From contig CAXWPJ010000009.1 in assembly GCA_963664115.2 (NCBI GenBank), forward strand, positions 256,001 through 320,000: a stretch of DNA of 64,000 bases, in the 5' to 3' direction. A model generated the notes under the pieces. The model did no database searches and was not told the origin of the DNA. It was given only the letters and a program-made list of their open reading frames with translations. This document shows, one piece after another, positions 6,584-42,881 of this stretch (position 1 is the stretch's first letter; every line of letters begins with the position of its first letter). The position numbers were made by a program, and so were the translations under genes. Source of the stretch: Terriglobia bacterium (lineage in GTDB: Bacteria; Acidobacteriota; Terriglobia; 20CM-2-55-15).

Positions 6584-7105
6584 ATGACCTTGCTCACCGC
6601 AACCTTCTACTACATGGCGACCGCCTCGGTGGTGAGCGCCCTACTGGCCGTGACACGGAGGAATCCCCTGCATAGCCTGCTCTGGGTGCTGGCGCTCTTC
6701 GGTCACGTCGCAGGCATCTTCCTGTTGCTGGAGGCTGAGTTTCTGGCGGTCGTGCAGGTCGTCGTGTATGCCGGGGCAATCTTGATCTTCTACCTCTTCG
6801 TCATGATGCTGCTCGACCTGTCGGACGAGGACACCCGGCCGCGGTTCGGCAATCATTGGCCCTTCGCTGCGGGTGCGGGACTCCTCTTTGTTGCCATAGC
6901 GTTTATCGCCCAACTCGAGCGGTCGAACATGGTCGGAATCAGGGGCACACCCTCGGGGGAAGGCCCGCTTCAAGGAAGCCTGGAAGGGATTGGTTTGGCG
7001 CTTTTCGGCCCATTTGCGTTGCCATTCGAAATGGTATCCCTGGTGCTGCTGGCCGCAATCGTCGGGGCTGTCGTTCTTGCACAGAGGAGGGTGCCCCGGC
7101 CATGA
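6584..7105 (+). CDS. nuoJ: NADH-quinone oxidoreductase subunit J
   Basis: RRNPLHSLL, AEFLAVVQVVVYAGAILIFYLFVMML, PFEMVSLVLLAAIVGAVVLA. Confidence 0.95.
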   Translation: MTLLTATFYYMATASVVSALLAVTRRNPLHSLLWVLALFGHVAGIFLLLEAEFLAVVQVVVYAGAILIFYLFVMMLLDLSDEDTRPRFGNHWPFAAGAGLLFVAIAFIAQLERSNMVGIRGTPSGEGPLQGSLEGIGLALFGPFALPFEMVSLVLLAAIVGAVVLAQRRVPRP

Positions 7106-7407
7106 TTGTGCCGACGAACGTGGTTCTGGGATTGAGCGCCATCCTGTTTGGAATTGGAGTATTCGGATTCCTGGCCCGTCGCAACGTTATCCTCATGCTC
7201 GTCTCGATTGAGGTCATGCTCAACGCAATTAACGTCAGTCTGGTCGGATTCAGCCAACACTTCGAAAATCCGCACGGCCAGATCATGGCCCTTTTCGTGA
7301 TCGCGGTGGCAGCCGCCGAAGCAGGGATCGGTCTGGGGCTTGTGATCGCCTTGAACCGGAACAAACCCGGGGTCCGCGTAGGAGACCTTACCGAACTCAA
7401 ATGGTAA
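7102..7407 (+). CDS. nuoK: NADH-quinone oxidoreductase subunit K
   Basis: ATG 7102; LFGIGVFG..RRNVILMLVSIEVMLNAIN, GQIMALFVIAVAAAEAGIGL. Confidence 0.95.
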   Translation: MIVPTNVVLGLSAILFGIGVFGFLARRNVILMLVSIEVMLNAINVSLVGFSQHFENPHGQIMALFVIAVAAAEAGIGLGLVIALNRNKPGVRVGDLTELKW

Positions 7408-8867
7408 CGTTTTCGGTTATGCCGCTGCTTGCGGTGCTCGTCTCGGCGGTGGGTGCGCTCCTGATCGCATGCACCGGCGAGCGTCGTGCCAATTTAAGGG
7501 AGTTCTGGTCGATTGCGGCGGGTGTCGGGCTGTTCGCTCTCGTCGCGAGCATGATCCCGAAGATATTAGCCGGTGGAACGGTGGAATTTGTGCTGTTCCG
7601 GATCCTCCCGGGCATCGATCTCGCCTTTAGAGCGGATGCCTTCGGCCTACTTTTTGCCTCCGGGGCGGCACTGCTCTGGATCTTGACCTCGTTCTATTCG
7701 ATCGGTTACATGCGTTCTCTCAAGGAGCACGCACAGACCCGTTACTATTCGTGCTTCGCACTGGCGCTCACCACGACGATTGGAGTGGCCTTCTCTGCCA
7801 ACCTCTTCACGCTGTTTGTATTTTACGAGGGCTTGACGCTGGTCACCTATCCACTCGTAGGGCACAACGAAACGGCCGAAGCCCGAGCGGGAGCCCGTAA
7901 ATATGTAATTTATCTGCTGGGTGCGGCCAAGGTCTTCCTGGTAGCCGCCATTGTGCTGACCTATAACGTCGCCGGGACCCTGGACTTCCGCAGTGGCGGA
8001 ATAATGCCGGCTGAACTGGTGAGCGAGCAGCCCACGCTTCTTTTTATGATCTTCGCCCTGTTCCTGTTTGGATTCGCCAAGAACGCACTGATGCCGCTAC
8101 ATAGCTGGTTACCGGCTGCAATGGTTGCGCCGACGCCGGTGAGCGCGCTTCTGCATGCGGTGGCTGTCGTCAAGACGGGTGTGTTCTCCACGCTCCGGGT
8201 CTTTCTCTTCATCTTCGGTCCCGAGGCCATGAGGGAACTCGGCGCCGACCAGCTGGCACTGGGCTTTGCAGCGGTAACGATTGTGGTCGGATCGCTTCTA
8301 GCGCTCAGCCAGGATAACCTCAAAGCCAGGCTGGCGTTCTCCACGGTCAGCCAGCTTTCCTACATCATCCTGGGCGCAGCACTCTTGAACTCCAGCGGAG
8401 TGATGGGCGGAGTCGCCCATATCACCAACCACGCCGTATCGAAGATCACGCTGTTCTTCTGCGCCGGTTCGATTTATGTATCCGCACACAAAACCGAAAT
8501 CAGCCAGATGTCCGGCCTGGCAAAACGCATGCCATGGACCATGGCTGCGTTTGCGCTGGCGTCCTTGAGCGTGGTGGGTATACCCATTACCAGCGGGTTC
8601 GTTTCCAAGTGGTACCTCGCCATCGGCGCGGTAGAGGGTCAGAGCTTTATCTTGTTGGGTGTACTTTTAGTCAGCTCGCTTCTAAACGCGGTCTACCTCG
8701 GCTCGATTGTGTACAAGGCCTACTTCGAAAAGGAGTCATCGCCGAACGAAGAAATCCGCGAAGTAGGGTGGATCGTTGCACCGTTGACAATTAGCGCAGC
8801 CCTAAGCCTGCTACTGGGACTCTACTCTGACCCTGTACTGGCACTGGCGGGAAGGGTCCTTCAGTGA
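7401..8867 (+). CDS. MrpD-like antiporter-type membrane subunit (extra proton-pumping module)
   Basis: FYEGLTLVTYPLV, KNALMPLHSWLPAAMVAPTPVSALLHAVAVVK, LKARLAFSTVSQL, GFVSKW; no transverse helix. Confidence 0.88.
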   Translation: MVTFSVMPLLAVLVSAVGALLIACTGERRANLREFWSIAAGVGLFALVASMIPKILAGGTVEFVLFRILPGIDLAFRADAFGLLFASGAALLWILTSFYSIGYMRSLKEHAQTRYYSCFALALTTTIGVAFSANLFTLFVFYEGLTLVTYPLVGHNETAEARAGARKYVIYLLGAAKVFLVAAIVLTYNVAGTLDFRSGGIMPAELVSEQPTLLFMIFALFLFGFAKNALMPLHSWLPAAMVAPTPVSALLHAVAVVKTGVFSTLRVFLFIFGPEAMRELGADQLALGFAAVTIVVGSLLALSQDNLKARLAFSTVSQLSYIILGAALLNSSGVMGGVAHITNHAVSKITLFFCAGSIYVSAHKTEISQMSGLAKRMPWTMAAFALASLSVVGIPITSGFVSKWYLAIGAVEGQSFILLGVLLVSSLLNAVYLGSIVYKAYFEKESSPNEEIREVGWIVAPLTISAALSLLLGLYSDPVLALAGRVLQ

Positions 8868-9127
8868 ATTTCTTGGAGCGACAGCTGGAAGATAAGGTTC
8901 GTTTCGCCCGGATCAAGCGCCTCTTTTACGTCGTCCTGGGCGTAATAGCCGTTGCCGAAATCGTTCTGCCGCTCGTCTTCGAAGGAGAGGAACACCACTT
9001 CGGATTCGAGGGCTTCCCAGCCTGGGGCTCGCTCTATGGGCTGATCTCCTGCGTGGCGATCATCGTCGTATCGAAACTCATCGGAAAGGCGTGGCTCATG
9101 CGCCGTGAGAACTACTATGACTCTTGA
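8864..9127 (+). CDS. Small two-TM membrane protein between the two MrpD-like genes
   Basis: 87 aa, two hydrophobic segments, FEGFPAWGSLYGL..C and C-terminal LMRRENYYD; overlaps both neighbouring genes. Confidence 0.8.
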   Translation: MNFLERQLEDKVRFARIKRLFYVVLGVIAVAEIVLPLVFEGEEHHFGFEGFPAWGSLYGLISCVAIIVVSKLIGKAWLMRRENYYDS

Positions 9128-10883
9128 GTGGGTACACCCGGGGCTCCTGCTCATCCTGGGCGCATGGCTCCTGGTTTTCCTCAAAGGTCCGATAAAACGC
9201 ATAGCAATGCTGGTCCTGCCAGGGGCGGCGCTGGTCGATTGCTTGTTGATGTCGCCTGGAACCTATGGTGCCGTGACGTTCATGGGCCAGGACCTCGTGC
9301 TTGGCCGCGTGGACAGTCTGAGCCTGGTATTTTCCTACATCTTCTCGCTCATGGCCTTCGTGGGCATGGTCTACGCCCTCCATGTAAAGGACGACTTCCA
9401 GCACGTCAGCGCCTTGATTTATGTGGGCGGCGCGCTCGGAGTCACGTTTGCCGGCGATTTCCTCTCCCTTTACCTCTTTTGGGAGCTCATGGCGATCTCG
9501 TCGGTGCTCCTGGTGTGGCTGCGACGGGAACCGTCAGCAGTAGCGGCCGGCTTCCGCTATCTTCTGATGCACATAGTCGGAGGACTCGTCCTCCTGGCAG
9601 GGATCGTAGTGCACTGGTCCCAGACCGGATCGCTTGCCTTCGAAGATATGGGCGTTTTTTCCGGCGGCCTGGCCTGGACCCTGATTCTCGTGGCCTTCCT
9701 TCTCAACGCGGCCGTTCCGCCTTTGGGGGCATGGCTTCCGGACGCCTACCCCGAGGCCACTGTTACAGGGGCGGTCTTCATGACGGCCTTTACAACCAAG
9801 TCCGCGGTCTATGTCTTGATCCGCGGCTTTGCGGGGACGGAACTCCTGATCTGGTTGGGAGGGGCGATGGCAGTCTATGGCGTGGTCTACGCCGTATTGG
9901 AAAACGACGCGCGACGCTTATTGGCCTACCACATCATCAGCCAGGTCGGCTACATGGTGTGTGGTGTAGGCGTCGGCACAGCGCTGGCCATAAACGGCGC
10001 CACGGCGCACGCGTTTGCTCACATCCTGTATAAGGCGCTTCTCTTTATGGGAGCCGGCGCCGTTATCCAGATGACAGGCGTGAGAAAGCTGAGCGAGATG
10101 GGGGGGCTCTACAAGACGATGCCGATCACGCTCGGGCTCTATATGATCGGCGCCTTTGCGATATCGGCCGTCCCGCTGTTCAGCGGTTTCGTAAGCAAGT
10201 CCATGGTGATTTCCGCAGCCGGCGAGGAACACCTGACGACGATCTTTCTGATGCTGACACTGGCCTCGGCCGGCACCTTCCTGCACACCGGCCTCAAGCT
10301 ACCGTATTACATGTTCTTTGCCAAGGACTCGGGCCTGCGCCCCAAGGAAGCGCCCACGAACATGCTCGTGGCCATGGGCCTGGCTGCCCTCGGATGTGTT
10401 CTGATCGGAGTGTTGCCCGGACTTCTGTACGCGCACCTTCCGAACCCGGTGGACTTCATTCCATATACGCTGACGCACGTGATGAGCACACTCGGAATGT
10501 TAGGCTTTACGGCCCTGGGATTTTTCCTGCTCCTCAAGCACCTCGATCCGGAACCCAAGGTCAGCCTCGACACGGATTGGTTCTACCGCCGTCCTTCGCT
10601 CAGGTTGGTGAGTCTGGTCCAGGGCCCACTGGCGCGTCTTGAGTACGGCTTTGTTGGAGAGATCTATGAGCGTCTGGTTCGCGGCCCTGTGTTGGGAGTA
10701 GCGAATCTGTTTCGCAAACTCGACAGCCTCGTCGTCGATTCCGCAATCGTAGGCGTGGGTCGTTCCACCCAGAGCTTGAGTCAGGTCCTGAAGACGATGG
10801 AGAACGGCCAGGTCCAGTATTACGGGCTGATCATGGCCGCAGGAATTCTCGCACTTTTGGCTCTGGCAGTGTTCTTTTCATGA
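9117..10883 (+). CDS. MrpD-like antiporter subunit carrying a NuoL-type C-terminal amphipathic helix plus a terminal TM (probable NuoL substitute)
   Basis: FWELMAISS, WLPDAYPEATVTGAVFMTAFTTK, RRLLAYHIISQVG, HILYKALLFM; C-terminus ...LDSLVVDSAIVGVG...MENGQVQYYGLIMAAG resembles NuoL helix HL and TM16. Confidence 0.85.
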   Translation: MTLEWVHPGLLLILGAWLLVFLKGPIKRIAMLVLPGAALVDCLLMSPGTYGAVTFMGQDLVLGRVDSLSLVFSYIFSLMAFVGMVYALHVKDDFQHVSALIYVGGALGVTFAGDFLSLYLFWELMAISSVLLVWLRREPSAVAAGFRYLLMHIVGGLVLLAGIVVHWSQTGSLAFEDMGVFSGGLAWTLILVAFLLNAAVPPLGAWLPDAYPEATVTGAVFMTAFTTKSAVYVLIRGFAGTELLIWLGGAMAVYGVVYAVLENDARRLLAYHIISQVGYMVCGVGVGTALAINGATAHAFAHILYKALLFMGAGAVIQMTGVRKLSEMGGLYKTMPITLGLYMIGAFAISAVPLFSGFVSKSMVISAAGEEHLTTIFLMLTLASAGTFLHTGLKLPYYMFFAKDSGLRPKEAPTNMLVAMGLAALGCVLIGVLPGLLYAHLPNPVDFIPYTLTHVMSTLGMLGFTALGFFLLLKHLDPEPKVSLDTDWFYRRPSLRLVSLVQGPLARLEYGFVGEIYERLVRGPVLGVANLFRKLDSLVVDSAIVGVGRSTQSLSQVLKTMENGQVQYYGLIMAAGILALLALAVFFS

Positions 10884-12346
10884 GTTATCCGGTCCTGACA
10901 GTTACGACGTTTCTGCCCCTCGCGGGGGGTGTTCTGATCCTGCTCCTGGGCAGCGAGCGACTCGCTCGCTGGGTCGCCCTCATCACCACTCTGGCCACCG
11001 TAGCCGTTTCGGTCCCGCTTTACAGGGGATTCGACAAGACATCGAGCACACTGCAATTCGTGGAGTCGCGGGACTGGATCCCGAATTGGAACATCGCTTA
11101 CGGCATGGGCGTGGACGGAATCAGCCTTCCATTCATCTTCCTTGCCTCGCTGCTCGGCGTCCTGTGCATCGGCGCCTCATGGTCCGCGATCCAAACTCGA
11201 ACGCGAGAGTTCTATGCGGCGCTCCTGGTGGCGGAAACCGCGATGATCGGCCTTTTCGCGGCCTCGAACCTTTTTCTCTTCTATATTTTCTGGGAACTCA
11301 TCCTGGTTCCGGTCTTTCTCCTGATCGGCGTCTGGGGAGGTCCGGGGCGTGTCTACGCGTCGATCAAGTTTTTGCTCTTCACTCTCGCCGGGAGCGTTTT
11401 CATGCTTGTGGGCATGATCGCTCTCTACCAGGCATTGGGCACATTGGACTTCAGGGCCCTGGCCCTGGCCCGGGACAGCCTCGATTCGAGCCAGCAAGCC
11501 TGGCTCTTCGCGGCCTTTCTGGCCGCTTTCGCAGTCAAGGTGCCCATGTTTCCGGTACATACCTGGCTCCCGGACGCTCACACGGAAGCTCCAACGGCGG
11601 GGAGCGTGATCCTGGCCGGAATTCTTCTCAAAATGGGCGCATACGGGTTCCTGCGTGTCTCGATTCCGGTTCTTCCCGACGCCGTGCAACTCTTCTTGAC
11701 GCCGATGCTGGTCGTCTCCGTGGTGGCTATTGTCTATGGCGCATATGTGACCCTTGTCCAGACGGACGTAAAACGTCTCATCGCGTTCTCGAGCATCAGC
11801 CACATGGGTTTCGTCACGCTGGGTATTTTCACACTCGACCAGGGCGGGGTCGAAGGAGCGGTCCTGCAGATGATCAACCACGGGATCATTTCGGCGGCAC
11901 TATTCTTGTGCGTCGGCATGATCTACGAGCGCACTCACACGCGGGAAATCAACGATTACGGGGGAGTTGCCAAAGCCGCACCGGTCTATTCGACCTTGCT
12001 CGGCCTGTTTTGTCTGGCAGGAACGGGATTCCCAGGTCTGAATTCATTCGTAGGGGAGTTTCTGATCATCGGTGGCGCTTTCAGAACTCACGCCTTGCTG
12101 GGGGCGATGGCGGTCTGGGGTGTAGTCCTTGGAACGGCGTACCTCGTCTGGCTCTACTACCGCGTTGTTATGGGCCAGATCAACCCCGGGCTCGAGGGGC
12201 TCAAGCTAGAGCTCAATATTCGTGAGGTGGCGACGCTTGCCCCTCTGGTCTTATTCGCGGTGTGTCTCGGCCTCTACCCTGATCTCGTCCTCTCTTATTT
12301 GCGAGCTCCCGTGGCCGCGCTACTTGCCGGGGGGGTCACCCCGTGA
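10880..12346 (+). CDS. nuoM: NADH-quinone oxidoreductase subunit M
   Basis: GVDGISL, FYIFWELILVP, KVPMFPVHTWLPDAHTEAPT, KRLIAFSSISHMG, MINHG. Confidence 0.95.
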   Translation: MSYPVLTVTTFLPLAGGVLILLLGSERLARWVALITTLATVAVSVPLYRGFDKTSSTLQFVESRDWIPNWNIAYGMGVDGISLPFIFLASLLGVLCIGASWSAIQTRTREFYAALLVAETAMIGLFAASNLFLFYIFWELILVPVFLLIGVWGGPGRVYASIKFLLFTLAGSVFMLVGMIALYQALGTLDFRALALARDSLDSSQQAWLFAAFLAAFAVKVPMFPVHTWLPDAHTEAPTAGSVILAGILLKMGAYGFLRVSIPVLPDAVQLFLTPMLVVSVVAIVYGAYVTLVQTDVKRLIAFSSISHMGFVTLGIFTLDQGGVEGAVLQMINHGIISAALFLCVGMIYERTHTREINDYGGVAKAAPVYSTLLGLFCLAGTGFPGLNSFVGEFLIIGGAFRTHALLGAMAVWGVVLGTAYLVWLYYRVVMGQINPGLEGLKLELNIREVATLAPLVLFAVCLGLYPDLVLSYLRAPVAALLAGGVTP

Positions 12347-13764
12347 ACGGCGCCACTCTTTCTGACGTCGCCCTGCTGGTCCCGGAACTGATTCTGGTCG
12401 GGATGTCCGTCGCATTGATCGTTCTCGCACGACGTATAAAGAACACGCCGATTGCGGCAACAGGGACAGTCCTTGCTGCATTGGGCGCTGGCATGTACTC
12501 CTTCTGGGCGGTGTCAGAAGGCACTCAAGTCGGCTTTGGCGGCATGCTCATTCTGGACGGCTACTCCCAATTCTTCAAGGTGCTCATTGCCGCCACTCTG
12601 GCTCTGGTCGCGCTTCTGTCGGTGAGAAGCCACGATCTGGAAGAGGTGCCCCGCGGCGAGTACCATGCCCTGCTCCTGTTGGCTTCGACGGGGATGATGC
12701 TTGCAGTTTCATCACTGGATCTGCTGACCCTCTACTTGGGCCTAGAGCTTATGACGCTGTGCTCCTACATCCTGGTCGGGATCGCGGTGGACAGACCGAC
12801 GTCAAACGAGGCCGCGATCAAGTATTTCCTTTTGGGGTCATTCGCCTCAGCCCTGCTTCTCTACGGGATCGCCCTGACCTACGGCCTCACCGGCGCTACC
12901 AACTATCAGGCCGTTGCCTCGGTAATTACGGGTCAGGGGCTCACGGAGAACCCGCTTCTGCTAGTGGCCATCGGACTGGTAGCGGCCGGGCTCGCATTCA
13001 AGATTGCGGTGGTGCCGTTTCACGCCTGGGCGCCGGACGCTTACCAGGGTGCAGGTGCACCTGTCGCGGGCTTCCTGGCGGCCGGTTCCAAGGCCGTCGG
13101 CCTGGCCGCTCTGGGAAGGGTTTCCCTGACCGCGTTCGGCGAGGAAACCTACGTCTTGTCCCTGGTTCTTGCGGGACTCGCAGCCCTTTCGATTGTCGTC
13201 GGCAGCATCGTGGCCCTGGCCCAGACCGACATGAAACGTTTGCTGGCCTATTCTGCAATCGCGCACGCGGGTTACGCACTGATGGGCCTCATGGCCGGTA
13301 CGAGGGAGGGGATTTCTGCAACCATGACCTACGCCTTCTTCTACGTCTTTATGACGCTCGGAACATTCGGCGTGGTCATCGCTCTGGGCGAGCGTGGTCG
13401 AACTCTGGATGGATACAAGGGCCTGGCTCGGCAGCGACCCGGAACAGCCGCCCTCATGTTACTTTTTCTCTTGTCTCTGACCGGCATCCCTCCAACGGGG
13501 GGCTTCGTCGCCAAGTTTGTCGTTATCCTGAGCGCTGTGCGCGCAGGCTACGTGGGACTGGCTGTACTTGCGGTGGCCTGCAGCGTAATTTCAGCATTCG
13601 TGTACATGCGGGTAGCCGTCTTCATGTACATGAGAGAGCCCGAGGAGCCGGCGCCTTCGAGCTTCCCGGTGGCGGTGTCCGCCGCTCTCGCCGTGGCAGC
13701 GCTGGTCACTTTAATTGGTGGGATCTCCCCGGGCATTTTGACGGTCTGGGCGGTGTCTCCGTGA
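12343..13764 (+). CDS. nuoN: NADH-quinone oxidoreductase subunit N
   Basis: YLGLELM, EAAIKYFLLG, FKIAVVPFHAWAPDAYQGA, KRLLAYSAIAHAGY, GIPPTGGFVAK. Confidence 0.95.
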   Translation: MNGATLSDVALLVPELILVGMSVALIVLARRIKNTPIAATGTVLAALGAGMYSFWAVSEGTQVGFGGMLILDGYSQFFKVLIAATLALVALLSVRSHDLEEVPRGEYHALLLLASTGMMLAVSSLDLLTLYLGLELMTLCSYILVGIAVDRPTSNEAAIKYFLLGSFASALLLYGIALTYGLTGATNYQAVASVITGQGLTENPLLLVAIGLVAAGLAFKIAVVPFHAWAPDAYQGAGAPVAGFLAAGSKAVGLAALGRVSLTAFGEETYVLSLVLAGLAALSIVVGSIVALAQTDMKRLLAYSAIAHAGYALMGLMAGTREGISATMTYAFFYVFMTLGTFGVVIALGERGRTLDGYKGLARQRPGTAALMLLFLLSLTGIPPTGGFVAKFVVILSAVRAGYVGLAVLAVACSVISAFVYMRVAVFMYMREPEEPAPSSFPVAVSAALAVAALVTLIGGISPGILTVWAVSP

Positions 13765-13792: not shown

Positions 13793-14146
13793 ATGAACGC
13801 ATACATCGGGATAGCGGTCAGTTTCGTTCTGGCTGCAGGGATCACGGGCTTGATGGTCATCCTGGCCTCCACGCTGGGAAAGAAGAATTCCACGCCTGTA
13901 AAGTTGTCGCCGTTCGAATGTGGGGTGGATCCGTTTTCGCTCCCTATCGGCAAGTTGGCAATCAAGTTTTACCTGACTGCTATTCTGTTCATCCCCTTCG
14001 ATGTCGAGCTGGTGTTCCTCTATCCCTGGGCCGTGCTTTACCGCCAGCTGGGGACCTTGGGACTGGTTGAAATGGGACTCTTTCTGGGCATCCTGATGGC
14101 AGGTTATGTCTACGCCTGGGACAATGGCGCTCTTGACTGGCAATGA
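13793..14146 (+). CDS. nuoA: NADH-quinone oxidoreductase subunit A
   Basis: KLSPFECG, FYLTAILFIPFDVELVFLYPWA, GALDW. Confidence 0.95.
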   Translation: MNAYIGIAVSFVLAAGITGLMVILASTLGKKNSTPVKLSPFECGVDPFSLPIGKLAIKFYLTAILFIPFDVELVFLYPWAVLYRQLGTLGLVEMGLFLGILMAGYVYAWDNGALDWQ

Positions 14147-14196
14147 CTGGAAATGACTGGCAATGACTGGAAATGACTGGCAATGCAGGACAATGA
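14134..14196 (+). repeat. Tandem 10-bp repeat TGACTGG(C/A)AA x5 plus one degenerate unit, spanning the nuoA stop
   Basis: TGACTGGCAA TGACTGGAAA TGACTGGCAA TGACTGGAAA TGACTGGCAA TGCAGGACAA TGA. Confidence 0.92.
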
Positions 14197-14219: not shown

Positions 14220-14723
14220 ATGTTCAACGACACATCGTTTCTAACGAGCCGGCTCGACGACGCGGTTGGCTGGGCACGAAAGTATTCAATCTTCCAGTAT
14301 CCGTTCGTGACTGCGTGCTGCGGGATGGAGTACATGGCGACGGCCTGCTCTCATTACGACGTGGACCGTTTCGGAGCGGGCTTCCCAAGATTTTCTCCTC
14401 GCCAGGCCGACGTACTTTTCGTCGTCGGCACGATCAGTCACAAGATGGCGCCTGTCCTCCTACGCATCCATGAGCAGATGGCGGATCCCAAGTGGGTGGT
14501 CGCTTTCGGCGTGTGCGTGTGCACGGGCGGTTTTTATGACAACTACGCCACAGTGATGGGCATCGATACCATCATGCCGGTGGATGTTTATATACCTGGA
14601 TGCCCACCGCGGCCGGAGATGGTCCTCGACGGCCTGATGAAGCTGCAGGACAAGATCCAGGACCATGGAGTAAGCGGCAAGCGCGTCGCGCCTGAACCTC
14701 GTCCGGACCTCTTCGAAGCATGA
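14220..14723 (+). CDS. nuoB: NADH-quinone oxidoreductase subunit B
   Basis: TACCGMEYM, SPRQAD, PVDVYIPGCPPRPE (N2 ligands). Confidence 0.95.
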   Translation: MFNDTSFLTSRLDDAVGWARKYSIFQYPFVTACCGMEYMATACSHYDVDRFGAGFPRFSPRQADVLFVVGTISHKMAPVLLRIHEQMADPKWVVAFGVCVCTGGFYDNYATVMGIDTIMPVDVYIPGCPPRPEMVLDGLMKLQDKIQDHGVSGKRVAPEPRPDLFEA

Positions 14724-15301
14724 ATACCACATCTTTGATCGAATCCCTCACGGACCGCTTTCCCGCTGCGGTGACCTCGTCCCATGCCTACCGGGGTGAC
14801 GCAACACTTATTGTTCGTCCGAAGAGCCTCGTCGACGTGGCGCGGTTTCTCAAGGAGGACCCGGCCTTAAAAATGAATTACCTCATGGACCTGACTGCCG
14901 TCGACTACTCCGCATTCGGGAAACACCCCACGCCGGCCTTTTTCACTTCTTCGGGAGTGACGGTGAAGCCGTCTTCCGAGATTCCGGATGAAGAACCGTG
15001 GCCCGGCCCTCCGGACGAAGGGCGGTTTGCGGTCGTGTACCACTTCTTCTCGACCACCCACAAACATCGGCTACGACTGGTTGTCCCGGTAGAGGAGAGT
15101 GTGGCTCAGGTGGATTCGCTGACCGCGTTGTGGCCGGGCGCCGACTGGCTTGAACGCGAGGTCTGGGACATGTTCGGGATCGGTTTTACGGGACATCCCG
15201 ACTTGAAGCGGATTCTCATGTACGAAGGGTTCGAGGGTCACCCGCTACGGAAGGACTATCCCGTCAAAAAGCGTCAGCCGCTGATCGGACCGACCAACTA
15301 A
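14720..15301 (+). CDS. nuoC: NADH-quinone oxidoreductase subunit C
   Basis: DLTAVDY, WLEREVWDMFGIGFTGHPDLKRILMYEGFEGHPLRKDYP. Confidence 0.95.
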   Translation: MNTTSLIESLTDRFPAAVTSSHAYRGDATLIVRPKSLVDVARFLKEDPALKMNYLMDLTAVDYSAFGKHPTPAFFTSSGVTVKPSSEIPDEEPWPGPPDEGRFAVVYHFFSTTHKHRLRLVVPVEESVAQVDSLTALWPGADWLEREVWDMFGIGFTGHPDLKRILMYEGFEGHPLRKDYPVKKRQPLIGPTN

Positions 15302-15310: not shown

Positions 15311-16693
15311 ATGGAAAAGAACAGCCCATCGCCGGAGACGGCGCCGACACCCCGGGGCGACCCGGCAGAACTCGAAACGCGGGACATGCTCATCAACGTG
15401 GGTCCCGCTCATCCCGCCATGCACGGGATCATCCGGATCGTAGCTAAGCTCGACGGGGAACAGATCGAGGATGCCGAAGTAGAGATCGGCTACCTTCACC
15501 GTGGTTTTGAAAAGATGGCTGAAACGGTCGACTATAACGGCGTCATGCCTTACACCGACCGGCTCAACTATGTCTCGCCGCTCATCAACAATATGGGCTA
15601 TTGCATGGCTGTGGAAAAGCTCCTTGGGATCTCGGTCCCGGAGCGCTGCCACTACGTTCGGGTCATTCTCTCCGAGATCTCGAGGCTCTCGGATCACCTG
15701 ACCTGCGTCGGTGCAACCGCCATGGAGTTGGGGGCCTTCAGCGTGTTTCTGTACATGATCAAGGCCCGGGAGTACCTGTGGGAGTTGGTGGAGAAGGTCA
15801 CCGGAGCCCGGTTGACAGTCAGCTATTGCCGCGTGGGCGGTGTCAAAGCGGACCTTCCCGATGACTTCGCCGAACCTTGCCGCAAGGCCTTTGAGGAAAC
15901 CCGCAAGGTCCTCGCTGAGGCGGATGGGCTCCTCACCCGCAATCGCATTTTCACCGACCGTATGACAGGGACAGGAGTGCTCTCCGTCGACGACGCCATA
16001 GGCTACGGAATCACCGGCCCCTTCCTTCGTGCGAGCGGCGCGGACTACGACGTGCGCAAAGACTGCCCCTACGCCGTCTACGACCGGATACCATTCGACG
16101 TGCCAGTGGGTAGCAAAGGCGACAACATGGATCGCTATCTGGTACGCATGGAGGAAATGCAACAGTCCATGCGGATCGTGGAAACAGCGCTTGCCGACAT
16201 ACCGCCCGGCCCCGTCATGGTCAATCCTGAGACGGGGCGCCCCATCCCGGCCGCCGATATGGTAGACCTGGCCAAAGTGGGCGACATCAGAGCCATTTCA
16301 GGCAGGCCCGCCGTCGTCGATCCGACACTCGAGGGGGCCAGTCGGGCCGAATATCCGTCTATTGCTGCGGATGAGAAACGCGTTTTTCTACCTGCTAAAG
16401 AGGATACTTACGGCAACATCGAAGGGCTCATGAACCACTTCAAGCTGGTCATGTTGGGCCACGGCCTGCGCCCCCCAAAAGGGGAAGTCTATTTCCCGGT
16501 GGAAGGCGCCAACGGAGAACTCGGGTTCTACGTAGTGAGCGACGGAGAGGGACGTCCCTACCGGGTCCGGGTCCGCCCGCCCTGCTTCGCTATCATGTCG
16601 GCCCTGCCCCATCTCCTTGTCGGGGGCATGATGGCCGATATGGTCCCCACCTTTGGGTCCGTGAACATGATAGGCGGGGAACTCGACCGGTGA
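15311..16693 (+). CDS. nuoD: NADH-quinone oxidoreductase subunit D
   Basis: NVGPAHPAMHG, GYLHRGFEK, DRLNY, C-terminal GELDR; no NiFe CxxC motifs. Confidence 0.95.
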   Translation: MEKNSPSPETAPTPRGDPAELETRDMLINVGPAHPAMHGIIRIVAKLDGEQIEDAEVEIGYLHRGFEKMAETVDYNGVMPYTDRLNYVSPLINNMGYCMAVEKLLGISVPERCHYVRVILSEISRLSDHLTCVGATAMELGAFSVFLYMIKAREYLWELVEKVTGARLTVSYCRVGGVKADLPDDFAEPCRKAFEETRKVLAEADGLLTRNRIFTDRMTGTGVLSVDDAIGYGITGPFLRASGADYDVRKDCPYAVYDRIPFDVPVGSKGDNMDRYLVRMEEMQQSMRIVETALADIPPGPVMVNPETGRPIPAADMVDLAKVGDIRAISGRPAVVDPTLEGASRAEYPSIAADEKRVFLPAKEDTYGNIEGLMNHFKLVMLGHGLRPPKGEVYFPVEGANGELGFYVVSDGEGRPYRVRVRPPCFAIMSALPHLLVGGMMADMVPTFGSVNMIGGELDR

Positions 16694-18486
16694 CGCTCAA
16701 GGAAATGGAAGACGCGGCGGAGGAAATCCTCCGACGCTATGAGTACCCGAAGGCGGCGATGCTGCCTGTCCTGTGGCTCGTACAGCAGAACCAGGGCTAC
16801 ATCTCACCTGAGGCAGAAGCTTGGGTGGGCCACCTTCTTGGAGTGTCTATCGCCCACGTGCGCGAGGTAGTCTCCTTTTACAATATGTTCCATACCCAGC
16901 CCGTCGGACGGCGGGAACTTCGGGTCTGCACGAGTCTGCCATGCCGCCTCCGCGGAGGGCACGATGTGTTGGAACGCATCAAGGACGGATTAAAGATCAG
17001 CCCGGGTGAGACCACGCCCGGCCAGGAGGTGACGCTCACCGAGGTCGAATGCTTGTGTGCTTGCGAGATGGCGCCCATGGCCCAGCTCGACGAACGCTTT
17101 GTCGGCCCTCTTGACGGTGGGGCCGTAGCCACCCTCATCGAGGACGCTTTGAGCGAACCCGGGAGCGGGGAGTCGACCCCGGAGCCCGACCCCTACATTT
17201 GCACGGATGGGCCGGTTCTCTCCACGCGCTTCAACGATCCGGAGGGGACCTGGTTCGAAACTTACGTCGCCGATGACGGATACGCCGCCTCCCGGCGAGT
17301 GCTCACCTCGATGACGCCGAGGGAGGTGATCGACGAGGTCGCCAAGGCCAAGCTCCGCGGTCTCGGCGGGGCGGGTTTTCCGGCCAGCCGAAAGTGGTCC
17401 TTCATACCCAAGGATTCGACCGAGCCCAAGTACCTCGTAGTCAACGCAGACGAGGGCGAACCCGGGACTTTCAAGGACCGTTACATTCTGGAAAGGGACC
17501 CGCACGCCCTGATCGAGGGCATGATCATCGCAGCCTATGCGATCGGCAGTCATAAGGCCTACGTCTACATTCGGGGCGAGTATTTCAGGTCCGCCAAACG
17601 TTTACAACGCGCCCTGGACGAGGCCTATAACACGAATTGGCTGGGCAAGAACATTCAGGGGACAGGCTTTGACCTGGACGTGGTCATCCACCGGGGCGCC
17701 GGCGCCTACATTTGTGGAGAAGAGACTGCGCTCCTGACGTCGCTCGAGGGCGGCAAAGGCTTTCCCAAGATCAAACCCCCTTTTCCGGCTATTTCGGGCC
17801 TCTTCAAATGCCCCACGATCGTCAACAATGTGGAAACCCTGGCCTGTGTCCCTTTTATCCTGCGCAACGGAGCCGAGCGCTTTGCCGAAATAGGTTCCGA
17901 GACCCAGGGTGGAACACGCCTCTTCTGTGTGAGCGGGCACGTGGTCCGGCCCGGCGTTTACGAGACGTCGGTCAGCATCACCCTGCGGGAACTGATCGAG
18001 CAGCATGCCGGGGGCGTACGCGATGGCAAGAAGCTTAAGGCTGTCATTCCCGGGGGGATCTCAGCCAAGATTCTCAGGGCTGACGAGATCGATGTGGGCA
18101 TGGATTTCGACTCGCTCAGGGGGGCCGGAACCATGGCTGGATCCGGGGGCGTAATCGTCATGGATGAAACCACCTCCATGGTCGAGGCGCTCGAGTCCGC
18201 GGCCCGGTTCTTCGCTGACGAGTCCTGCGGACAGTGTTCCCCCTGCCGGGAGGGGACAGGCTGGGTGCATCGCATCGTCGACCGCATCACCGAAGGGCAG
18301 GGACGTGTCGAGGATCTGGACGACCTTCTCGCTATTGCCGGCGATATGGAAGGCAACACTATCTGCGTTTTCGCGGACGCGGCGGCCTGGCCAGTCCAGT
18401 CCTACATCATGAAATTCAGGGACGAGTTCGAGGATTACATCCGTACCGGCCAGCGGGTCGGGGGAAAGGAAGCTGCGCATGCCTAA
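16690..18486 (+). CDS. nuoEF: Fused NuoE-NuoF (2Fe-2S N1a domain plus FMN/NADH domain)
   Basis: CTSLPC...ECLCACEMAP followed by GLGGAGFP, NADEGEPGTFKDR, GAGAYICGEETALL, ESCGQCSPCREG, TICVFADAA. Confidence 0.92.
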   Translation: MTLKEMEDAAEEILRRYEYPKAAMLPVLWLVQQNQGYISPEAEAWVGHLLGVSIAHVREVVSFYNMFHTQPVGRRELRVCTSLPCRLRGGHDVLERIKDGLKISPGETTPGQEVTLTEVECLCACEMAPMAQLDERFVGPLDGGAVATLIEDALSEPGSGESTPEPDPYICTDGPVLSTRFNDPEGTWFETYVADDGYAASRRVLTSMTPREVIDEVAKAKLRGLGGAGFPASRKWSFIPKDSTEPKYLVVNADEGEPGTFKDRYILERDPHALIEGMIIAAYAIGSHKAYVYIRGEYFRSAKRLQRALDEAYNTNWLGKNIQGTGFDLDVVIHRGAGAYICGEETALLTSLEGGKGFPKIKPPFPAISGLFKCPTIVNNVETLACVPFILRNGAERFAEIGSETQGGTRLFCVSGHVVRPGVYETSVSITLRELIEQHAGGVRDGKKLKAVIPGGISAKILRADEIDVGMDFDSLRGAGTMAGSGGVIVMDETTSMVEALESAARFFADESCGQCSPCREGTGWVHRIVDRITEGQGRVEDLDDLLAIAGDMEGNTICVFADAAAWPVQSYIMKFRDEFEDYIRTGQRVGGKEAAHA

Positions 18487-20131
18487 GCTAAGCATTGACG
18501 GCCGCGAGGTGAGCGTCGATCAGGGAACCACGGTCATCCAGGCGGCGGAGACGCTGGGGATTTTCGTTCCGCGCTACTGCTACCACCCCGGGCTCTCTAT
18601 CGCGGGCAACTGCCGCATCTGCCTCGTGGAAGTGGAGAAATCCCCCAAGCTCCAGATCGCATGCAACACTCCTGCGACCGAGGGGATGGTTGTTCACACA
18701 AAGAGCGACACCGCCCAGGACGGACGTCGCTCGGTACTGGAGTTCCTCCTGGCCAATCACCCGCTCGACTGCCCGGTTTGCGACCAGTCCGGTGAGTGCG
18801 ACTTACAGAATTTCTACCTGGACTTCGGCCTCTACAATCCGCGCTTCAGGGAGCGTAAAGTCAAGAAAAAGAAAGCTGTGACGCTGGGCCCGTATGTGAT
18901 GCTGGACCAGGAGCGCTGCATCCTCTGTTCCCGGTGCGTGCGCTTCACGGACGAGATCACCGAGACCGGAGAGTTCGGCATCTTCAATCGCGGAGACCGC
19001 TCCGAGCTGGGGCTGTACCCTGGCAAGGAACTCGACAATCGGTATTCGACCAACGTGGTGGACATCTGCCCCGTCGGTGCGCTGACCGAGCGGAAGTTCC
19101 GTTTCAAGACGCGGGTCTGGTACCTCTCCAGCGCCCCGACCGTCTGCAACGGTTGCAGTCAGGGCTGCAACATGGATTTGCATTACGTTCTGGACCGCCC
19201 TCACCTGAACGACGGCGCGCGGCTGCTGCGTGTCAAGCCACGATACAACCCGGATGTAAACCAATGGTGGTTGTGCGATGAAGGGCGCTATGGCCTCGAT
19301 TGGATCGACCAGGCTCGGCTCCGGAAGGTACGCGGGCCGTCGGGGGACGGGGCCGAGGGCGCAGATGCTCAGAATGCCACAAATACAACGGATACGACAT
19401 GGGACACGGCCCTTCGAACAATCTCAGCAGCTCTCTCGGTCCTGCCCAAGGGACGGATCGGGGTAATTGCCTCAGCCCGACTCACGATCGAAGAGCTGTT
19501 TCTGATCCGGGAGATTTTCCAGCGCGGCCTCGGCGCCCAGGTCAGTGCCTCTGTTCCAGAAATGCCAGGCTCTTCCGACGATTTCCTCATTAAGGCGGAT
19601 AAGAACCCCAACACCATGGGGGCGGAGCTGCTGGGACTATCCGGTCCGAACGCGCCGGACGCAGGACAGATCCTGGACGAGGCACTCGCCGGGAACCTTG
19701 ACGCCCTGTGGGTTATGGGGCACGACCTTGTCGCACTCTTCGGTGAAGAGAAGGCCCGACAACTCCGAGACAAGGTGGGTCTCTTCGTCTTCTCCGGAAC
19801 GAACGAAAACCGAACGGTTCCCTTGGCCCATTGGGCCTTGCCGAGCGCGGCCTATGTGGAAAAAGACGGGACCTTCGTCAACTGCCACGGACGCGTCCAG
19901 CGAATCGGCCAGGCGTTTCCTCCGCTTGAGGACTCCCGTGAGGACTGGCGCATTCTCCTGGAATTGGCCCGGCTGCTAATGCTCGAACTCGACTGGCACG
20001 AACCCCAGGACATCTTCGCGGCAGTGGCCTCCACCGAGGCGCCTTTCGCGGGAATGAGCTACGAGACGATAGGAGATCAGGGGGCTGGGGTCCGGCCAAC
20101 CGAGCCCGCTGAAGAGGTATCCGTCACGTGA
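18479..20131 (+). CDS. nuoG: NADH-quinone oxidoreductase subunit G (short, 550 aa)
   Basis: CYHPGLSIAGNCRIC, HPLDCPVCDQSGECDLQ, RCILCSRCVRF, CNGCSQGC...CDEGR (N7-type cluster). Confidence 0.92.
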   Translation: MPKLSIDGREVSVDQGTTVIQAAETLGIFVPRYCYHPGLSIAGNCRICLVEVEKSPKLQIACNTPATEGMVVHTKSDTAQDGRRSVLEFLLANHPLDCPVCDQSGECDLQNFYLDFGLYNPRFRERKVKKKKAVTLGPYVMLDQERCILCSRCVRFTDEITETGEFGIFNRGDRSELGLYPGKELDNRYSTNVVDICPVGALTERKFRFKTRVWYLSSAPTVCNGCSQGCNMDLHYVLDRPHLNDGARLLRVKPRYNPDVNQWWLCDEGRYGLDWIDQARLRKVRGPSGDGAEGADAQNATNTTDTTWDTALRTISAALSVLPKGRIGVIASARLTIEELFLIREIFQRGLGAQVSASVPEMPGSSDDFLIKADKNPNTMGAELLGLSGPNAPDAGQILDEALAGNLDALWVMGHDLVALFGEEKARQLRDKVGLFVFSGTNENRTVPLAHWALPSAAYVEKDGTFVNCHGRVQRIGQAFPPLEDSREDWRILLELARLLMLELDWHEPQDIFAAVASTEAPFAGMSYETIGDQGAGVRPTEPAEEVSVT

Positions 20132-21219
20132 TAGAAGTTCTGATCATCAAAATTACACTGGCGGGAATCGTTTTCTTCACGGTCTTGAACTTCGCAGGGT
20201 TTCATACCTGGGCGGAGCGGAAACAGTCGGCTCTGATCCAGGATAGAATCGGGGCCAACCGTGCGGATATTCTCGGCTTTAGGATGCTGGGACTCTTTCA
20301 CGGCATCGCCGACGCGATCAAGTTGTTCACCAAGGAGGACATCGTCCCGACGGGAGCAGACAGGACACTCCATACGCTGGCCCCATTCTTTTCGGTGTTC
20401 TTCGCCCTCGTCGCGTTCGCAGTGATTCCCTTCGGGGACACATTGATTCTCGGGGACAGGGTCATTGAACTCCAGGTCGCAACGTTTGACGCCGCGCTCC
20501 TCTACGTTTTCGCCATGCTCTCCCTCGGAGTCTACGGCGTGATCCTCGCGGGCTTTGCCTCGCCCAACAACTACGCAATCATGGGAAGCCTCAGGGCCAC
20601 CGCACAGATGATCTCCTATGAAATCGCACTGGGAGTCTCTGTTGTTGGAGTGATCATGGTTTACGGGACCATGGATCTGTCGGAACTCGTGCGGGCTCAG
20701 GGGCAGATGATCGGCGGCTGGATTCCTTTCTGGGGCATCGTCGCCCAGCCCGTGGCCTTTGTCGTATTTGTGACCGCGGCACTGGCCGAAACCAAGCGGA
20801 TGCCCTTTGATATGCCGGAAGGGGAATCAGAGATCATCGGGTACTTTGTGGAGTACAGCGGCATGAAGTTCGGGATGTTCTTCCTCACGGACTTCCTAGA
20901 GACCATCATGGTGGCATGCTTGTCGACCACACTCTTTTTCGGCGGGTGGCAGGTACCCTTCCTGTTGCCGGACGGGTTCCACTTCCCCTGGGGAGCGGAG
21001 ATACTCATGCCCAATTGGCTCTACGCCCTGCTGGGTGTGGTGAGCTTTTCGACCAAGGTCGTGGTTTTCTGTTGGATCTTCATGCAGCTTCGCTGGACCC
21101 TGCCACGATTCCGTTATGATCAGCTCATGAAACTGGGCTGGCGAGGGCTGTTCCCGATCGCGGTGGCCAATATTGTGGTCACGGCCGGCGTGCTGATGTT
21201 TTTCGGAGAGGGGTTCTAA
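20128..21219 (+). CDS. nuoH: NADH-quinone oxidoreductase subunit H
   Basis: ERKQSALIQDRIGANR, ADAIKLFTKED, QMISYE, PFDMPEGESE, WTLPRFRYDQLM. Confidence 0.95.
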   Translation: MIEVLIIKITLAGIVFFTVLNFAGFHTWAERKQSALIQDRIGANRADILGFRMLGLFHGIADAIKLFTKEDIVPTGADRTLHTLAPFFSVFFALVAFAVIPFGDTLILGDRVIELQVATFDAALLYVFAMLSLGVYGVILAGFASPNNYAIMGSLRATAQMISYEIALGVSVVGVIMVYGTMDLSELVRAQGQMIGGWIPFWGIVAQPVAFVVFVTAALAETKRMPFDMPEGESEIIGYFVEYSGMKFGMFFLTDFLETIMVACLSTTLFFGGWQVPFLLPDGFHFPWGAEILMPNWLYALLGVVSFSTKVVVFCWIFMQLRWTLPRFRYDQLMKLGWRGLFPIAVANIVVTAGVLMFFGEGF

Positions 21220-21878
21220 TGGCCGTAAGAGTTGTCTCAAGGCCCGAGTTGACTTTCTGGGAGAAGCTCTACATCCCGCAGATCGTCTCCGGCTTCAGGA
21301 TCACGTCCAGACACTTCTTCCGAAACCTCTTTCTCCATACGGCCCACAAACTGGGCCTGTTCAAACACCTTGCTGCCTCCGCCACCATACAGTATCCCGA
21401 AGAACTCCGGCCGCTGATGTCACGCTACCGAAGCCGCCACCGGCTGACCGTGCGCGACGACAACACACCACGCTGCGTCGGATGTATGCTGTGTGAAACG
21501 GTCTGCCCGGCCCACTGCATTACGATCGTGGCCGGGGAACACCCCGACCCCAATGTCGAGAAATATCCGATCCGCTTCGACATCGATCTGGGGGTGTGCG
21601 TCTATTGTGGTTACTGCGTCGAGGTATGCCCTGAGGATGCGATCCGGATGGACACGGGAATTCTTGATCTGGCGGCTTACTCGAGGGAGGCCATGCAGTT
21701 GGACATCCACGAACTCATGGACCCAAAGCTGCACAAACCCATCCCCCAGTGCGACCTCGATTTCCCGCACAAGTGCGAGGTGAGCGGGGGCGAGATGAAG
21801 GGAAGCTGGGAGGGATTGGTGGAACATCGGCCAGCGGACTCACCACAGGTCCCGGCAGAGTCGGCAAAGCAGGGATAA
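21219..21878 (+). CDS. nuoI: NADH-quinone oxidoreductase subunit I
   Basis: TIQYPEE, CVGCMLCETVCP and CVYCGYCVEVCP (two 4Fe-4S motifs). Confidence 0.95.
   Translation: MAVRVVSRPELTFWEKLYIPQIVSGFRITSRHFFRNLFLHTAHKLGLFKHLAASATIQYPEELRPLMSRYRSRHRLTVRDDNTPRCVGCMLCETVCPAHCITIVAGEHPDPNVEKYPIRFDIDLGVCVYCGYCVEVCPEDAIRMDTGILDLAAYSREAMQLDIHELMDPKLHKPIPQCDLDFPHKCEVSGGEMKGSWEGLVEHRPADSPQVPAESAKQG
21306..21811 (+). repeat. Direct repeat copy 1 (~506 bp of nuoI)
   Basis: Aligns ungapped to 28037-28542 (offset 6731) with about 6 substitutions by eye. Confidence 0.95.
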
Positions 21879-22116
21879 AGGCCACCCCAGTATTCGTTTG
21901 ACACCCCGGACTTTTCGGCCGTTCGATCCCGGACCTCGCTCGGCCAACGCTGGCGGCTTCAGTTTACGCCGCGCGCTCGTATTCCCCCGTTATGGTTCCG
22001 GAAATTCCCAGACATCTACCTCATCTTCATGGCGACGGACTTCTTATTTCGCTTATCCGCCTATCTCTCCTACCTCGCAGAGATTGCTTATTTCGCCTAT
22101 ACTCACAATTTCGCGT

Positions 22117-24933: not shown

Positions 24934-25215
24934 ATGGCGAAACGACGGAATTTTTCAGCAGATTTCAAAGCGAAGGTAGCGCTGGCCGCGATGCGTGGCG
25001 ACGGCACGATGGCCGAATTGGCGGCGCGGTACAAGATCCATCCGAACATGATCACGAAGTGGAAGCGTGATGCGCTTGATAGCGTTAAAGAAGCATTCCA
25101 GCGAGGCCGGGATCCATCGGCCCGGAACCACGAGGACGAGATCAAAGACCTGCAGGCCAAGATCGGTGAACTGGTCGTGGAACGGGATTTTTTAGCACGA
25201 GCCTTCAATCGATGA
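24934..25215 (+). CDS. IS3 transposase OrfA (HTH)
   Basis: RRNFSADFKAKVALAA...ELAARYKIHPNMITKWK...LQAKIGELVVERDFL. Confidence 0.92.
   Translation: MAKRRNFSADFKAKVALAAMRGDGTMAELAARYKIHPNMITKWKRDALDSVKEAFQRGRDPSARNHEDEIKDLQAKIGELVVERDFLARAFNR
25188..25194 (+). other. -1 programmed frameshift slippery site T TTT TTA
   Basis: In the OrfA frame GAT TTT TTA; a -1 shift enters the OrfB frame. Confidence 0.7.
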
Positions 25216-27871: not shown

Positions 27872-28036
27872 TGTACGTCGTCAGAGTAATTCGGACAGAA
27901 GGGCTGTCTCTCCAAGAGACGGCTTTTAAGTTATACCACTTCAGTCCTCAAGTTTGCGATCCGACGCTCGGCCAGCGTTCGCTGCTTGATTCTCTCCCGA
28001 CGGGAGAGGATTTCCTCCTGATGGCCAAAGAACACT
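27872..28036 (-). mobile_element. Remnant of a second IS: transposase C-terminus plus right terminal IR
   Basis: Minus strand EVFFGHQEEILSRRERIKQRTLAERRIANLRTEVV* resembles IS3/IS481-type transposase tails; followed by ...CTGTCCGAATTACTCTGACGACGTACA end. Confidence 0.65.
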
Positions 28037-40130: not shown

Positions 40131-40135
40131 CTCAG

Positions 40136-42807: not shown

Positions 42808-42881
42808 CAGGAGTCGGATACGACTTCATTGAAAAGACCAAAGCTCAACATTCCGCAATTCATCACTTTGCAGCCGGCCTC

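Follow-up and report, generated by a model that had tools for sequence, protein, structure and literature searches.

Complex I variants with additional antiporter-like subunits

The green type of complex I is known from rhizobia (PMC9040806, in the excerpts consulted). On plasmids of S. meliloti and Phyllobacterium, its genes run J-K-D1-orf-D2-M-N-A-B-C-D-E-F-G, with two MrpD-like subunits and a small ORF in place of nuoL. According to the same excerpts, 2M complex I (Chadwick et al. 2018) combines canonical NuoL with a second NuoM and a strap that is 26 aa longer, and Complex_I_3 of Ca. Manganitrophaceae, compared here by its description, has two MrpD-like subunits akin to those of green complex I along with two NuoM, which makes five modules, and its strap helix HL carries a further insertion of 26 aa. 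The parts of PMC4758237, PMC12361115, and PMC4453560 consulted do not describe the green variant, save for a rhizobial second enzyme placed under clade 'other', and the literature searched yielded neither a structure nor a stoichiometry for a green complex I. Related genes also occur in Mrp operons with three MrpD genes, ordered E-F-G-B-B-C-D0-D1-[orf]-D2, on a Haloterrigena plasmid and at 16 acidobacterial loci.

A green-type complex I operon

The window, which is the whole 64,000-nucleotide stretch analyzed, carries an entire complex I operon that belongs to the published green type. The gene order is nuoJ-K-D1-orf87-D2-nuoM-N-A-B-C-D-EF-G-H-I, canonical nuoL is absent, and all four large ORFs (D1, D2, nuoM, and nuoN) match PF00361. 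The features are listed below.

6584..7105, + strand: nuoJ (PF00499), overlapping the nuoK start
7102..7407, + strand: nuoK (NF004320, above cut-off); NuoK-type, matching the MrpC model only at E 8e-4
7401..8867, + strand: D1, MrpD-family antiporter-like subunit, 488 aa, with an MrpA/ND5-type gate and without a strap helix
8864..9127, + strand: orf87, conserved small membrane protein, 87 aa, two helices, no Pfam/NCBIfam family
9117..10883, + strand: D2, PRK12668-family subunit, 588 aa, with TM15, strap helix HL, and TM16
10575..10796, + strand: predicted amphipathic strap helix HL of D2, residues 487-560 (AlphaFold model; hydrophobic moments 0.28-0.46)
10656..10880, + strand: NuoL-type last 75 residues of D2 (canonical HL segment and TM16; NuoL/NdhF model matches)
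10880..12346, + strand: nuoM (TIGR01972 passed), uptake triad K298-S242-H234 intact, terminal E393
12343..13764, + strand: nuoN (TIGR01770 passed), junction Tyr234
13793..14146, + strand: nuoA (PF00507)
14220..14723, + strand: nuoB (TIGR01957, above cut-off)
14720..15301, + strand: nuoC (TIGR01961, above cut-off)
15311..16693, + strand: nuoD (TIGR01962, above cut-off)
16690..18486, + strand: nuoEF, fused, the sole NuoF found in the genome
18479..20131, + strand: nuoG, short, 550 aa (domain/family profile match)
20128..21219, + strand: nuoH (NF004740)
21219..21878, + strand: nuoI (TIGR01971)

The first-pass annotation had placed four antiporter-like modules in one complex I operon without canonical nuoL, and the ORFs at these coordinates and their family profiles agree with it. 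It also described all of these genes as translationally coupled. The pairs J/K, K/D1, D2/M, and M/N do overlap, but D1 and D2 are not coupled directly: orf87 lies between them, with a 4-nt overlap at the D1 stop and an 11-nt overlap at the D2 start.

The absence of canonical nuoL alongside two MrpD-like subunits, the J-N block ahead of A-G, and the orthologous D1 and D2 place the operon in the green type. Its D1 and D2 are 54-55% and 58-59% identical to the rhizobial proteins, and in quick trees each forms one clade with its S. meliloti orthologue (D1, support 91 in one tree and 96 in another; D2, 98, and 93 for the D2 core). The D2 proteins also share a TM7 Asn. The window operon differs in its menaquinone-type, Acidobacteriota-related host, its fused nuoEF, a short NuoG (550 versus ~850 aa), and nuoH-I downstream on the same strand rather than inverted. 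NuoA-D and G are only 34-46% identical to their rhizobial counterparts and, unlike the rhizobial green type, this is the only NuoF-bearing operon of its genome.

The precedent invoked by the first-pass annotation, 2M complex I, did not hold. Both systems have four antiporter-like subunits and a strap extended by about one module (26 versus ~27 residues), but the 2M enzyme has canonical NuoL and two NuoM, whereas the window operon has a single nuoM passing TIGR01972 and no canonical NuoL. The HL extension sits instead on a PRK12668-type subunit, and an AU test rejects a clade of the D2 core with canonical NuoL (p 6e-10). Complex_I_3, as described in the excerpts, shares the two MrpD-like subunits; its second NuoM, fifth module, and 26-aa HL insertion are absent here.

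Distribution of the D1-orf87-D2 cassette

D1-orf-D2-M was intact in 78 of 80 related loci, both exceptions being contig ends. The 78 carriers comprised 53 loci from Acidobacteriota, 20 from Planctomycetota, and five from Nitrospirota. The literature searched, a set without the two founding papers, yielded no carriers from Acidobacteriota, and so did not contradict the suggestion of the first-pass annotation that the occurrence there may be unreported. As a genome finding, the operon is unremarkable: the variant is published, and both Acidobacteriota and Planctomycetota commonly carry it.

The small ORF was found in 79 of the 80 loci, in rhizobia, and in the bacterial three-MrpD Mrp operons. 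The recurrence of the D1-orf87-D2-M order in 78 of the 80 loci shows that orf87 is not a chance ORF, and it is likely an extra subunit. Its relatives in atlas clusters are hypothetical proteins. The orf87 profile matched none of 21 large reference subunits, including a longer haloarchaeal D1 orthologue, and no fusion was found among them.

Gate residues of the antiporter-like subunits

The best profile for D1 was the MrpD model PRK08375 (634 bits, below the cut-off of 663), and D2 passed the MrpD model PRK12668 (746 bits, cut-off 564). Both fell far under the cut-off of 407.5 for the NuoL model TIGR01974, at 187 and 152 bits, respectively. Modules were classed as active or silent in proton uptake by the rules of bioRxiv 10.64898/2026.10.08.757549, a single preprint covering two species, in which an intact-looking triad alone is insufficient for activity, the central axis must also be confined so as to engage the junction His, and all three P. 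denitrificans modules depend on the ion-pair Lys.

By these rules, D1 is of the active type, with the uptake Lys, Ser/Thr, junction His, and Glu-Lys ion pair; its K-S-H triad is present in 79/79 nuo-context homologues, in which E143, K227, S248, H252, K258, K308, H340, H344, K348, K403, and W404 are invariant. W404 occupies the site where the distal subunits NuoL and MrpA carry D/E. NuoM is likewise of the active type (K-S-H triad in 83-84 of 84 homologues), and NuoN is not (junction Tyr in 78/78). D2 is of the inactive type: its triad is Arg266/Ala219/Tyr211, with Tyr211 at the junction, and Asn197 replaces the TM7 Lys; Asn197, Tyr211, and Arg266 occur in all 85 nuo-context homologues. The same 85 homologues retain E123, K228, H298, H302, K306, K361, and the TM6 residue His152. 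S362 stands in place of a D400-type exit-path acid. The first-pass annotation would have been refuted if one MrpD-like gene lacked the key charged residues, and this applies in part: D2 keeps E123, K228, and K361 but has lost the TM7 Lys.

Among D2 rows outside the nuo context, TM7 Asn was paired with TM6 His in 13/13, and TM7 Lys with TM6 Gln in 7/8. To judge from these alignments, His152 may stand in for the lost Lys of D2.

Strap helix of D2 and order of the modules

The body of D2 is of the Mrp type and its strap helix of the NuoL type, the latter exceeding the canonical length by about 27 residues. Tails were measured as residues from the D-W-x-Y motif to the C-terminus. In nuo-context D2 proteins they span 99-105 residues (median 102, n=85), and both the window and S. 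meliloti tails are 102 aa, compared with 72 in E. coli NuoL, 75 in canonical acidobacterial NuoL (2/2), and 77-80 in compact Mrp-type D2. The ruler is noisy, as 10 of 16 Mrp-context D2 tails span 88-103 (mostly proline-rich) and the other six lie at 77-78. The last 75 aa of D2 match NuoL/NdhF models at E 2e-6 to 2e-5, and such NuoL-model matches were obtained for 3/3 nuo D2 tails versus 0/4 Mrp D2 tails. The same segment aligns gap-free with residues 577-651 of 6hum_F (E 0.016). In an alignment-based AlphaFold model, HL starts at D487 and forms helices 487-536 and 545-560 at low pLDDT (41-57); a single-sequence version (pLDDT 44) was set aside.

Because the D2 strap reaches some 27 residues beyond the canonical length, four modules in line (N-M-D1-D2) are favored. 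Strap length is no proof of an extra module, since a second nuo operon in the same genome contains a single nuoM, yet the tail of its NuoL measures 100 residues. The order NuoN-NuoM-D2-D1, with D2 in the place of NuoL under a canonical strap and the ND5-like gated D1 added at the tip, is improbable in our judgment. The last 75 residues of D2 by themselves make up a canonical NuoL strap, and the junction His of D1 is of the ND5 type and normally a feature of distal subunits. However, HL begins 27 residues earlier, D1 lacks the acid following the TM12 Lys, and placing D2 internally would route the central axis through a subunit that lacks the ion-pair Lys.

Relationship to Mrp antiporters and Na+

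The three-MrpD Mrp operons share with the window orthologous D1, orf, and D2 genes (~47-55% identity) and the same D1 gate residues, and 12 of their 17 D2 proteins have the TM7 Asn. They differ in having D0 and the small Na+ subunits, in lacking a redox module, and in their D2 tails, which are not NuoL-type and are usually shorter. The NuoL-type tail of nuo-context D2 is the sole indication of a transfer from Mrp to complex I, as monophyly of Mrp D1 (p 0.196) and of Mrp D2 (p 0.60) was not rejected.

Such kinship could suggest Na+ translocation, as the first-pass annotation had proposed. We regard this as very unlikely: the Mrp structure (PMC7419157, in the part consulted) leads its authors to propose that Na+ moves via MrpBCEFG and the MrpA C-terminal domain rather than the antiporter-like modules, and MrpB, C, E, F, and G gave no matches in the 97% complete genome. 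Still less credible is that D1 and D2 form a separate Mrp antiporter merely sited in the operon, with complex I borrowing its NuoL from elsewhere. A canonical-family NuoL is indeed encoded in the second nuo operon (contig C2, one nuoM, without nuoEFG), the existence of which the first-pass annotation had left to be checked. Against a separate antiporter, on which that annotation would have been abandoned, the genome search turned up none of the small Mrp subunits, the NuoL-type tail is absent from Mrp D2, and canonical nuoL or Mrp genes lay near the cassette in 0/80 loci; we rejected it.

Proton stoichiometry and direction

The reading that we favor, by a little over even confidence, is a complex I in which NuoL is split, with NuoN-NuoM-D1-D2 in line and about four H+ (not five, and not Na+) moved per NADH. 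The jobs of NuoL would be divided between D1, an ND5-type gated proton-uptake module in an internal position, and D2, the distal end, the strap of which would clamp D1, M, and N. D2, itself silent in uptake, would probably provide the exit route; with NuoM as the second active uptake module and NuoN silent, the pattern would be [D2-, D1+, M+, N-]. More tentatively, with confidence short of even, green complex I may be a natural NuoL split in the full sense: an internal D1 with the ND5 master-switch His; a distal D2 with His152 instead of the ion-pair Lys, contributing strap and exit only, under a NuoL tail spanning three modules; and orf87 as an unrecognised 15th-type subunit.

Alternatively, all extra modules of the same architecture pump, giving five or six H+/NADH, chiefly for reverse electron transport, as proposed in a figure legend of PMC9040806 (in the excerpts consulted). 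The four modules are strongly conserved, D2 has most central-axis residues, the Asn/His and Lys/Gln pairing hints at compensation, the genome encodes a second complex I, and with menaquinone five to six H+ put equilibrium at 104-87 mV, which favors reverse running. We nevertheless consider it rather unlikely. The D2 triad is of the inactive type and its ion-pair Lys is absent; the sampled Lys/Gln rows form one clade, so that the co-variation amounts to about one event; neither RuBisCO nor NiFe hydrogenase turned up in the genome (rTCA lay outside the search); and this operon, holding the only NuoF of the genome, is likely the forward NADH oxidizer. Of the higher stoichiometry put forward in the first-pass annotation, the four modules thus stand, but the extra proton is doubtful given the Asn at the TM7 Lys position of D2.

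In the split-NuoL reading, the enzyme would likely couple NADH oxidation to menaquinone reduction via H+. The genome encodes the Mqn pathway, and a proteobacterial UbiA match fell below cut-off. About four H+ would place equilibrium near 130 mV, so that either direction is possible, and reverse running with menaquinone is thermodynamically plausible. If the split-NuoL reading is correct, an enzyme with four modules would move no more than four protons while working close to equilibrium with menaquinone. The variant bears on how the number of subunits relates to the number of protons pumped: with the ND5-type gate on D1 and, in this reading, the strap and the distal position on D2, it would directly test whether the stoichiometry of complex I follows from the count of modules or from their gate residues. 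The four-versus-five-proton prediction is measurable in S. meliloti, which is cultured and tractable and has the same design.

A second metatranscriptome run was uninformative; one library gave five short contigs (99-100% identical, depth ~3, DNA carry-over possible) covering D1, orf87/D2, D2, nuoD, and nuoEF/G.

Gene content of the nuo cluster

The plus strand of the window carries a 15-gene cluster, nuoJ-K-D1-orf87-D2-nuoM-N-A-B-C-D-EF-G-H-I, in which nuoE and nuoF are fused and nuoG is short. Two MrpD-family antiporter-like subunits, D1 (488 amino acids) and D2 (588 amino acids), are encoded between nuoK and nuoM.

6584-7105, plus strand: nuoJ
7102-7407, plus strand: nuoK
7401-8867, plus strand: D1, PF00361
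8864-9127, plus strand: orf87, an 87-amino-acid ORF
9117-10883, plus strand: D2, PF00361

PF00361 was matched by D1, D2, NuoM, and NuoN. The model nearest to D1 was MrpD PRK08375 (634 bits, slightly below the cut-off of 663), and D2 exceeded the PRK12668 cut-off (746 bits, cut-off 564). Both were far under the NuoL model cut-off; NuoM and NuoN exceeded their Nuo models. Every junction from nuoJ through nuoN overlaps by 4-11 nt, although D1 and D2 are joined via orf87, which the first-pass annotation omitted.

The operon encodes a green complex I

The first-pass annotation had taken 2M complex I, which has a canonical NuoL and a second NuoM, as the precedent for this operon. Green complex I is a rhizobial variant in which two MrpD-like subunits and a small ORF replace nuoL; its gene order is rearranged and it is up-regulated in symbiosis (PMC7415380). 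In quick trees, M and N of the window fell with NuoM and NuoN, respectively, and D1 and D2 clustered with rhizobial and other nuo-context copies, nested in MrpD families that are also used by three-MrpD Mrp operons. A single clade of D2 cores and canonical NuoL was rejected (p-AU 6e-10). Tree placement and the rejected clade, together with gene order, identify the operon as green complex I, a real, conserved, and previously described variant, and 2M complex I was dropped. Monophyly of Mrp D1 (p 0.196) and of Mrp D2 (p 0.60) was not rejected, and the trees leave the direction of recruitment unsettled. The literature searched on green complex I, 2M complex I, and MrpD/nuoL combinations, which did not extend to the founding papers or most subscription journals, contained no report of Acidobacteriota carriers, nor did it analyse the loss of lysine from D2 described below.

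Distribution of the D1-orf-D2 cassette

Among the best 80 of 186 D2 relatives confirmed in the genome collection, a sample biased to close matches, 53 were from Acidobacteriota, 20 from Planctomycetota, 5 from Nitrospirota, and 1 from Myxococcota, with 1 unassigned. D1-orf87-D2 was kept in 79 of these 80 loci, and nuoM accompanied it in 78; none had canonical nuoL or Mrp genes in its flanks. A D2 match at E<=1e-40 was found in 24 of 61 relatives, with at least 80% identity in 16 of them, including the genome studied here and all four same-genus members. Five matches of ~50% identity were opened, and all lay in three-MrpD Mrp operons. The PRK12668 cut-off was passed in 33 of the 301 genomes of a phylum sample; the 20 regions opened comprised 6 nuo, 11 Mrp, and 3 with neither. 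Plasmid matches (101 records) were rhizobial in 99 cases, and the S. meliloti and Phyllobacterium plasmids carry J-K-D1-hypothetical-D2-M-N-A-B-C-D-E-F-G with H-I inverted. Three Nitrospirota loci (L068, L070, and L078) have the cassette inside an operon of canonical order with separate nuoE and nuoF, and locus L082 has it in permuted order, also with E and F separate. Since these arrangements differ, the cassette seems to have been joined to a different soluble arm on more than one occasion.

Other nuo genes in the genome

The 15 cluster products were used as tblastn queries against the genome (4.89 Mb, 97% complete). One further nuo operon was found, with a NuoL of the canonical family and no nuoE, nuoF, or nuoG. 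The only NuoF found is that of the window.

L001:4919-16822 (G000:C2:484.9-496.8 kb), minus strand: nuo operon of contig C2, A-B-unrelated gene-C-D-H-I-J-K-L-M-N
L002:8029-10349 (G000:C9:526-528 kb), minus strand: nuoG-like gene in pieces in several frames, adjacent to an intact nuoI-like gene

The second locus lies downstream of a rhodanese-like ORF, distant from both operons, and may be the decayed remains of a locus that partnered the C2 operon. The C2 NuoL strap exceeds the canonical one by 25 residues (tail of 100 vs 75), like that of a 2M NuoL, yet the operon has a single nuoM. In all 5 relatives checked, the orthologous NuoL likewise has a 100-residue tail beside one nuoM; two of the 5 encode, in addition, a 75-residue NuoL close by. 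PMC9040806 describes a comparable case.

The D2 tail and module order

In the alignment-based model of D2 (96 sequences, mean pLDDT 86), the antiporter core is followed by TM15 (452-471), a loop, an extended helix of low confidence that runs from D487 to ~560, and TM16; the best fold matches of the model were MrpA, NdhF, and NuoL chains. Tails were measured from the D-W-x-Y motif through the C-terminus. Those of nuo-context D2 span 99-105 residues (median 102, n=85, leaving out two duplicates, one truncated and one frameshifted piece, and a motif-less haloarchaeal row), compared with 72 in E. coli NuoL and 75 in two canonical acidobacterial NuoL. Mrp-context D2 tails span 77-103 residues (median 89, n=16), six at 77-78 and ten at 88-103, with six prolines in 9 of the 10 long ones. 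NuoL/NdhF models matched the last 75 residues of all three nuo D2 compared but of none of the four Mrp D2. Tail lengths and these matches together indicate that D2 is an Mrp-type body followed by 27 helix residues and an entire NuoL-type strap. The additional 27 residues are close in number to a 26-residue insertion that is tied to one additional module in PMC9040806. The simplest reading is an in-line order N-M-D1-D2, against which stand the variable tail length of Mrp-context D2 and the long C2 tail beside one nuoM.

Uptake residues, proton count, and direction

Residues were aligned with E. coli NuoL/M/N and two MrpA/MrpD pairs. E. coli reference positions E144, K229/K234, H334, K342, K399, D400, and E407 were confirmed in retrieved sequences; K305, H254, K312, D258, H248, and K295 were taken from a preprint (bioRxiv 10.64898/2026.10.08.757549). 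In counts over kin, which are non-independent, D1 has E143, K227, an MrpA/ND5-type S248-H252 with K258, uptake K308, H340, H344, K348, and K403, all invariant in 79/79 nuo and 17/17 Mrp homologues, and W404 replaces the exit acid. NuoM has a complete K-S-H triad (83-84/84). D2 retains E123, K228, H298, H302, K306, and K361 but has Asn197 at the TM7 Lys site, junction Tyr211, and uptake-site Arg266 (each 85/85), with Ala219 in 79/85, and NuoN has a junction Tyr (78/78). TM6 His152 of D2 is likewise present in 85/85. Among 21 non-nuo D2 rows, TM7 Asn occurs with TM6 His in 13/13 and Lys with Gln in 7/8, the Lys rows sampled being one clade. D2, which has no ion-pair Lys, would be best accommodated as the last module of the row.

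According to the preprint, proton uptake is confined to modules whose Lys-Ser-His path is functional, namely both ND5 and ND4 in the four-proton Paracoccus enzyme and ND5 alone in a two-proton E. coli enzyme (bioRxiv 10.64898/2026.10.08.757549). Applied to the four modules, these rules predict two active modules (D1 and NuoM), two silent ones (D2 and NuoN), and ~4 H+ pumped per NADH, which speaks against the higher stoichiometry first suggested. This residue-based prediction is the part worth testing. The alternative suggestion of Na+ coupling is unlikely because the Mrp small subunits, the proposed Na+ route (PMC7419157), were not found in the genome: MrpE and MrpG families gave 0 matches (controls positive in 7 of 14 genomes each), and 11 small-subunit queries had no tblastn match.

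With 0.26 V for NADH to menaquinone (same preprint: bioRxiv 10.64898/2026.10.08.757549), the computed equilibrium is 130 mV at four H+ and 104 mV at five. Reverse running would therefore be possible even at four H+, but the operon also carries the only NADH-binding subunit found in the genome. The futalosine menaquinone family had two matches there, proteobacterial UbiA was below cut-off, and one heme-copper oxidase is present; neither RuBisCO nor NiFe hydrogenase was found in this genome.

Other features of the window

An ~10-bp unit is repeated in tandem (~4.5 copies) in the nuoA-nuoB spacer (~14141-14186), beginning at the nuoA stop. The 3' part of nuoI is duplicated as a 513-bp direct repeat (21299-21811 and 28030-28542, 98.4% identical). 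The ~6.2 kb between the copies, which looks like an insertion at nuoI, contains a low-GC (0.46) sulfatase-like ORF (21898-24594) and an ORF that we take to be transposase-like (25212-26060). Two adjacent, differing gene clusters on the plus strand (39468-45882) are presumably of the succinate dehydrogenase/fumarate reductase type.
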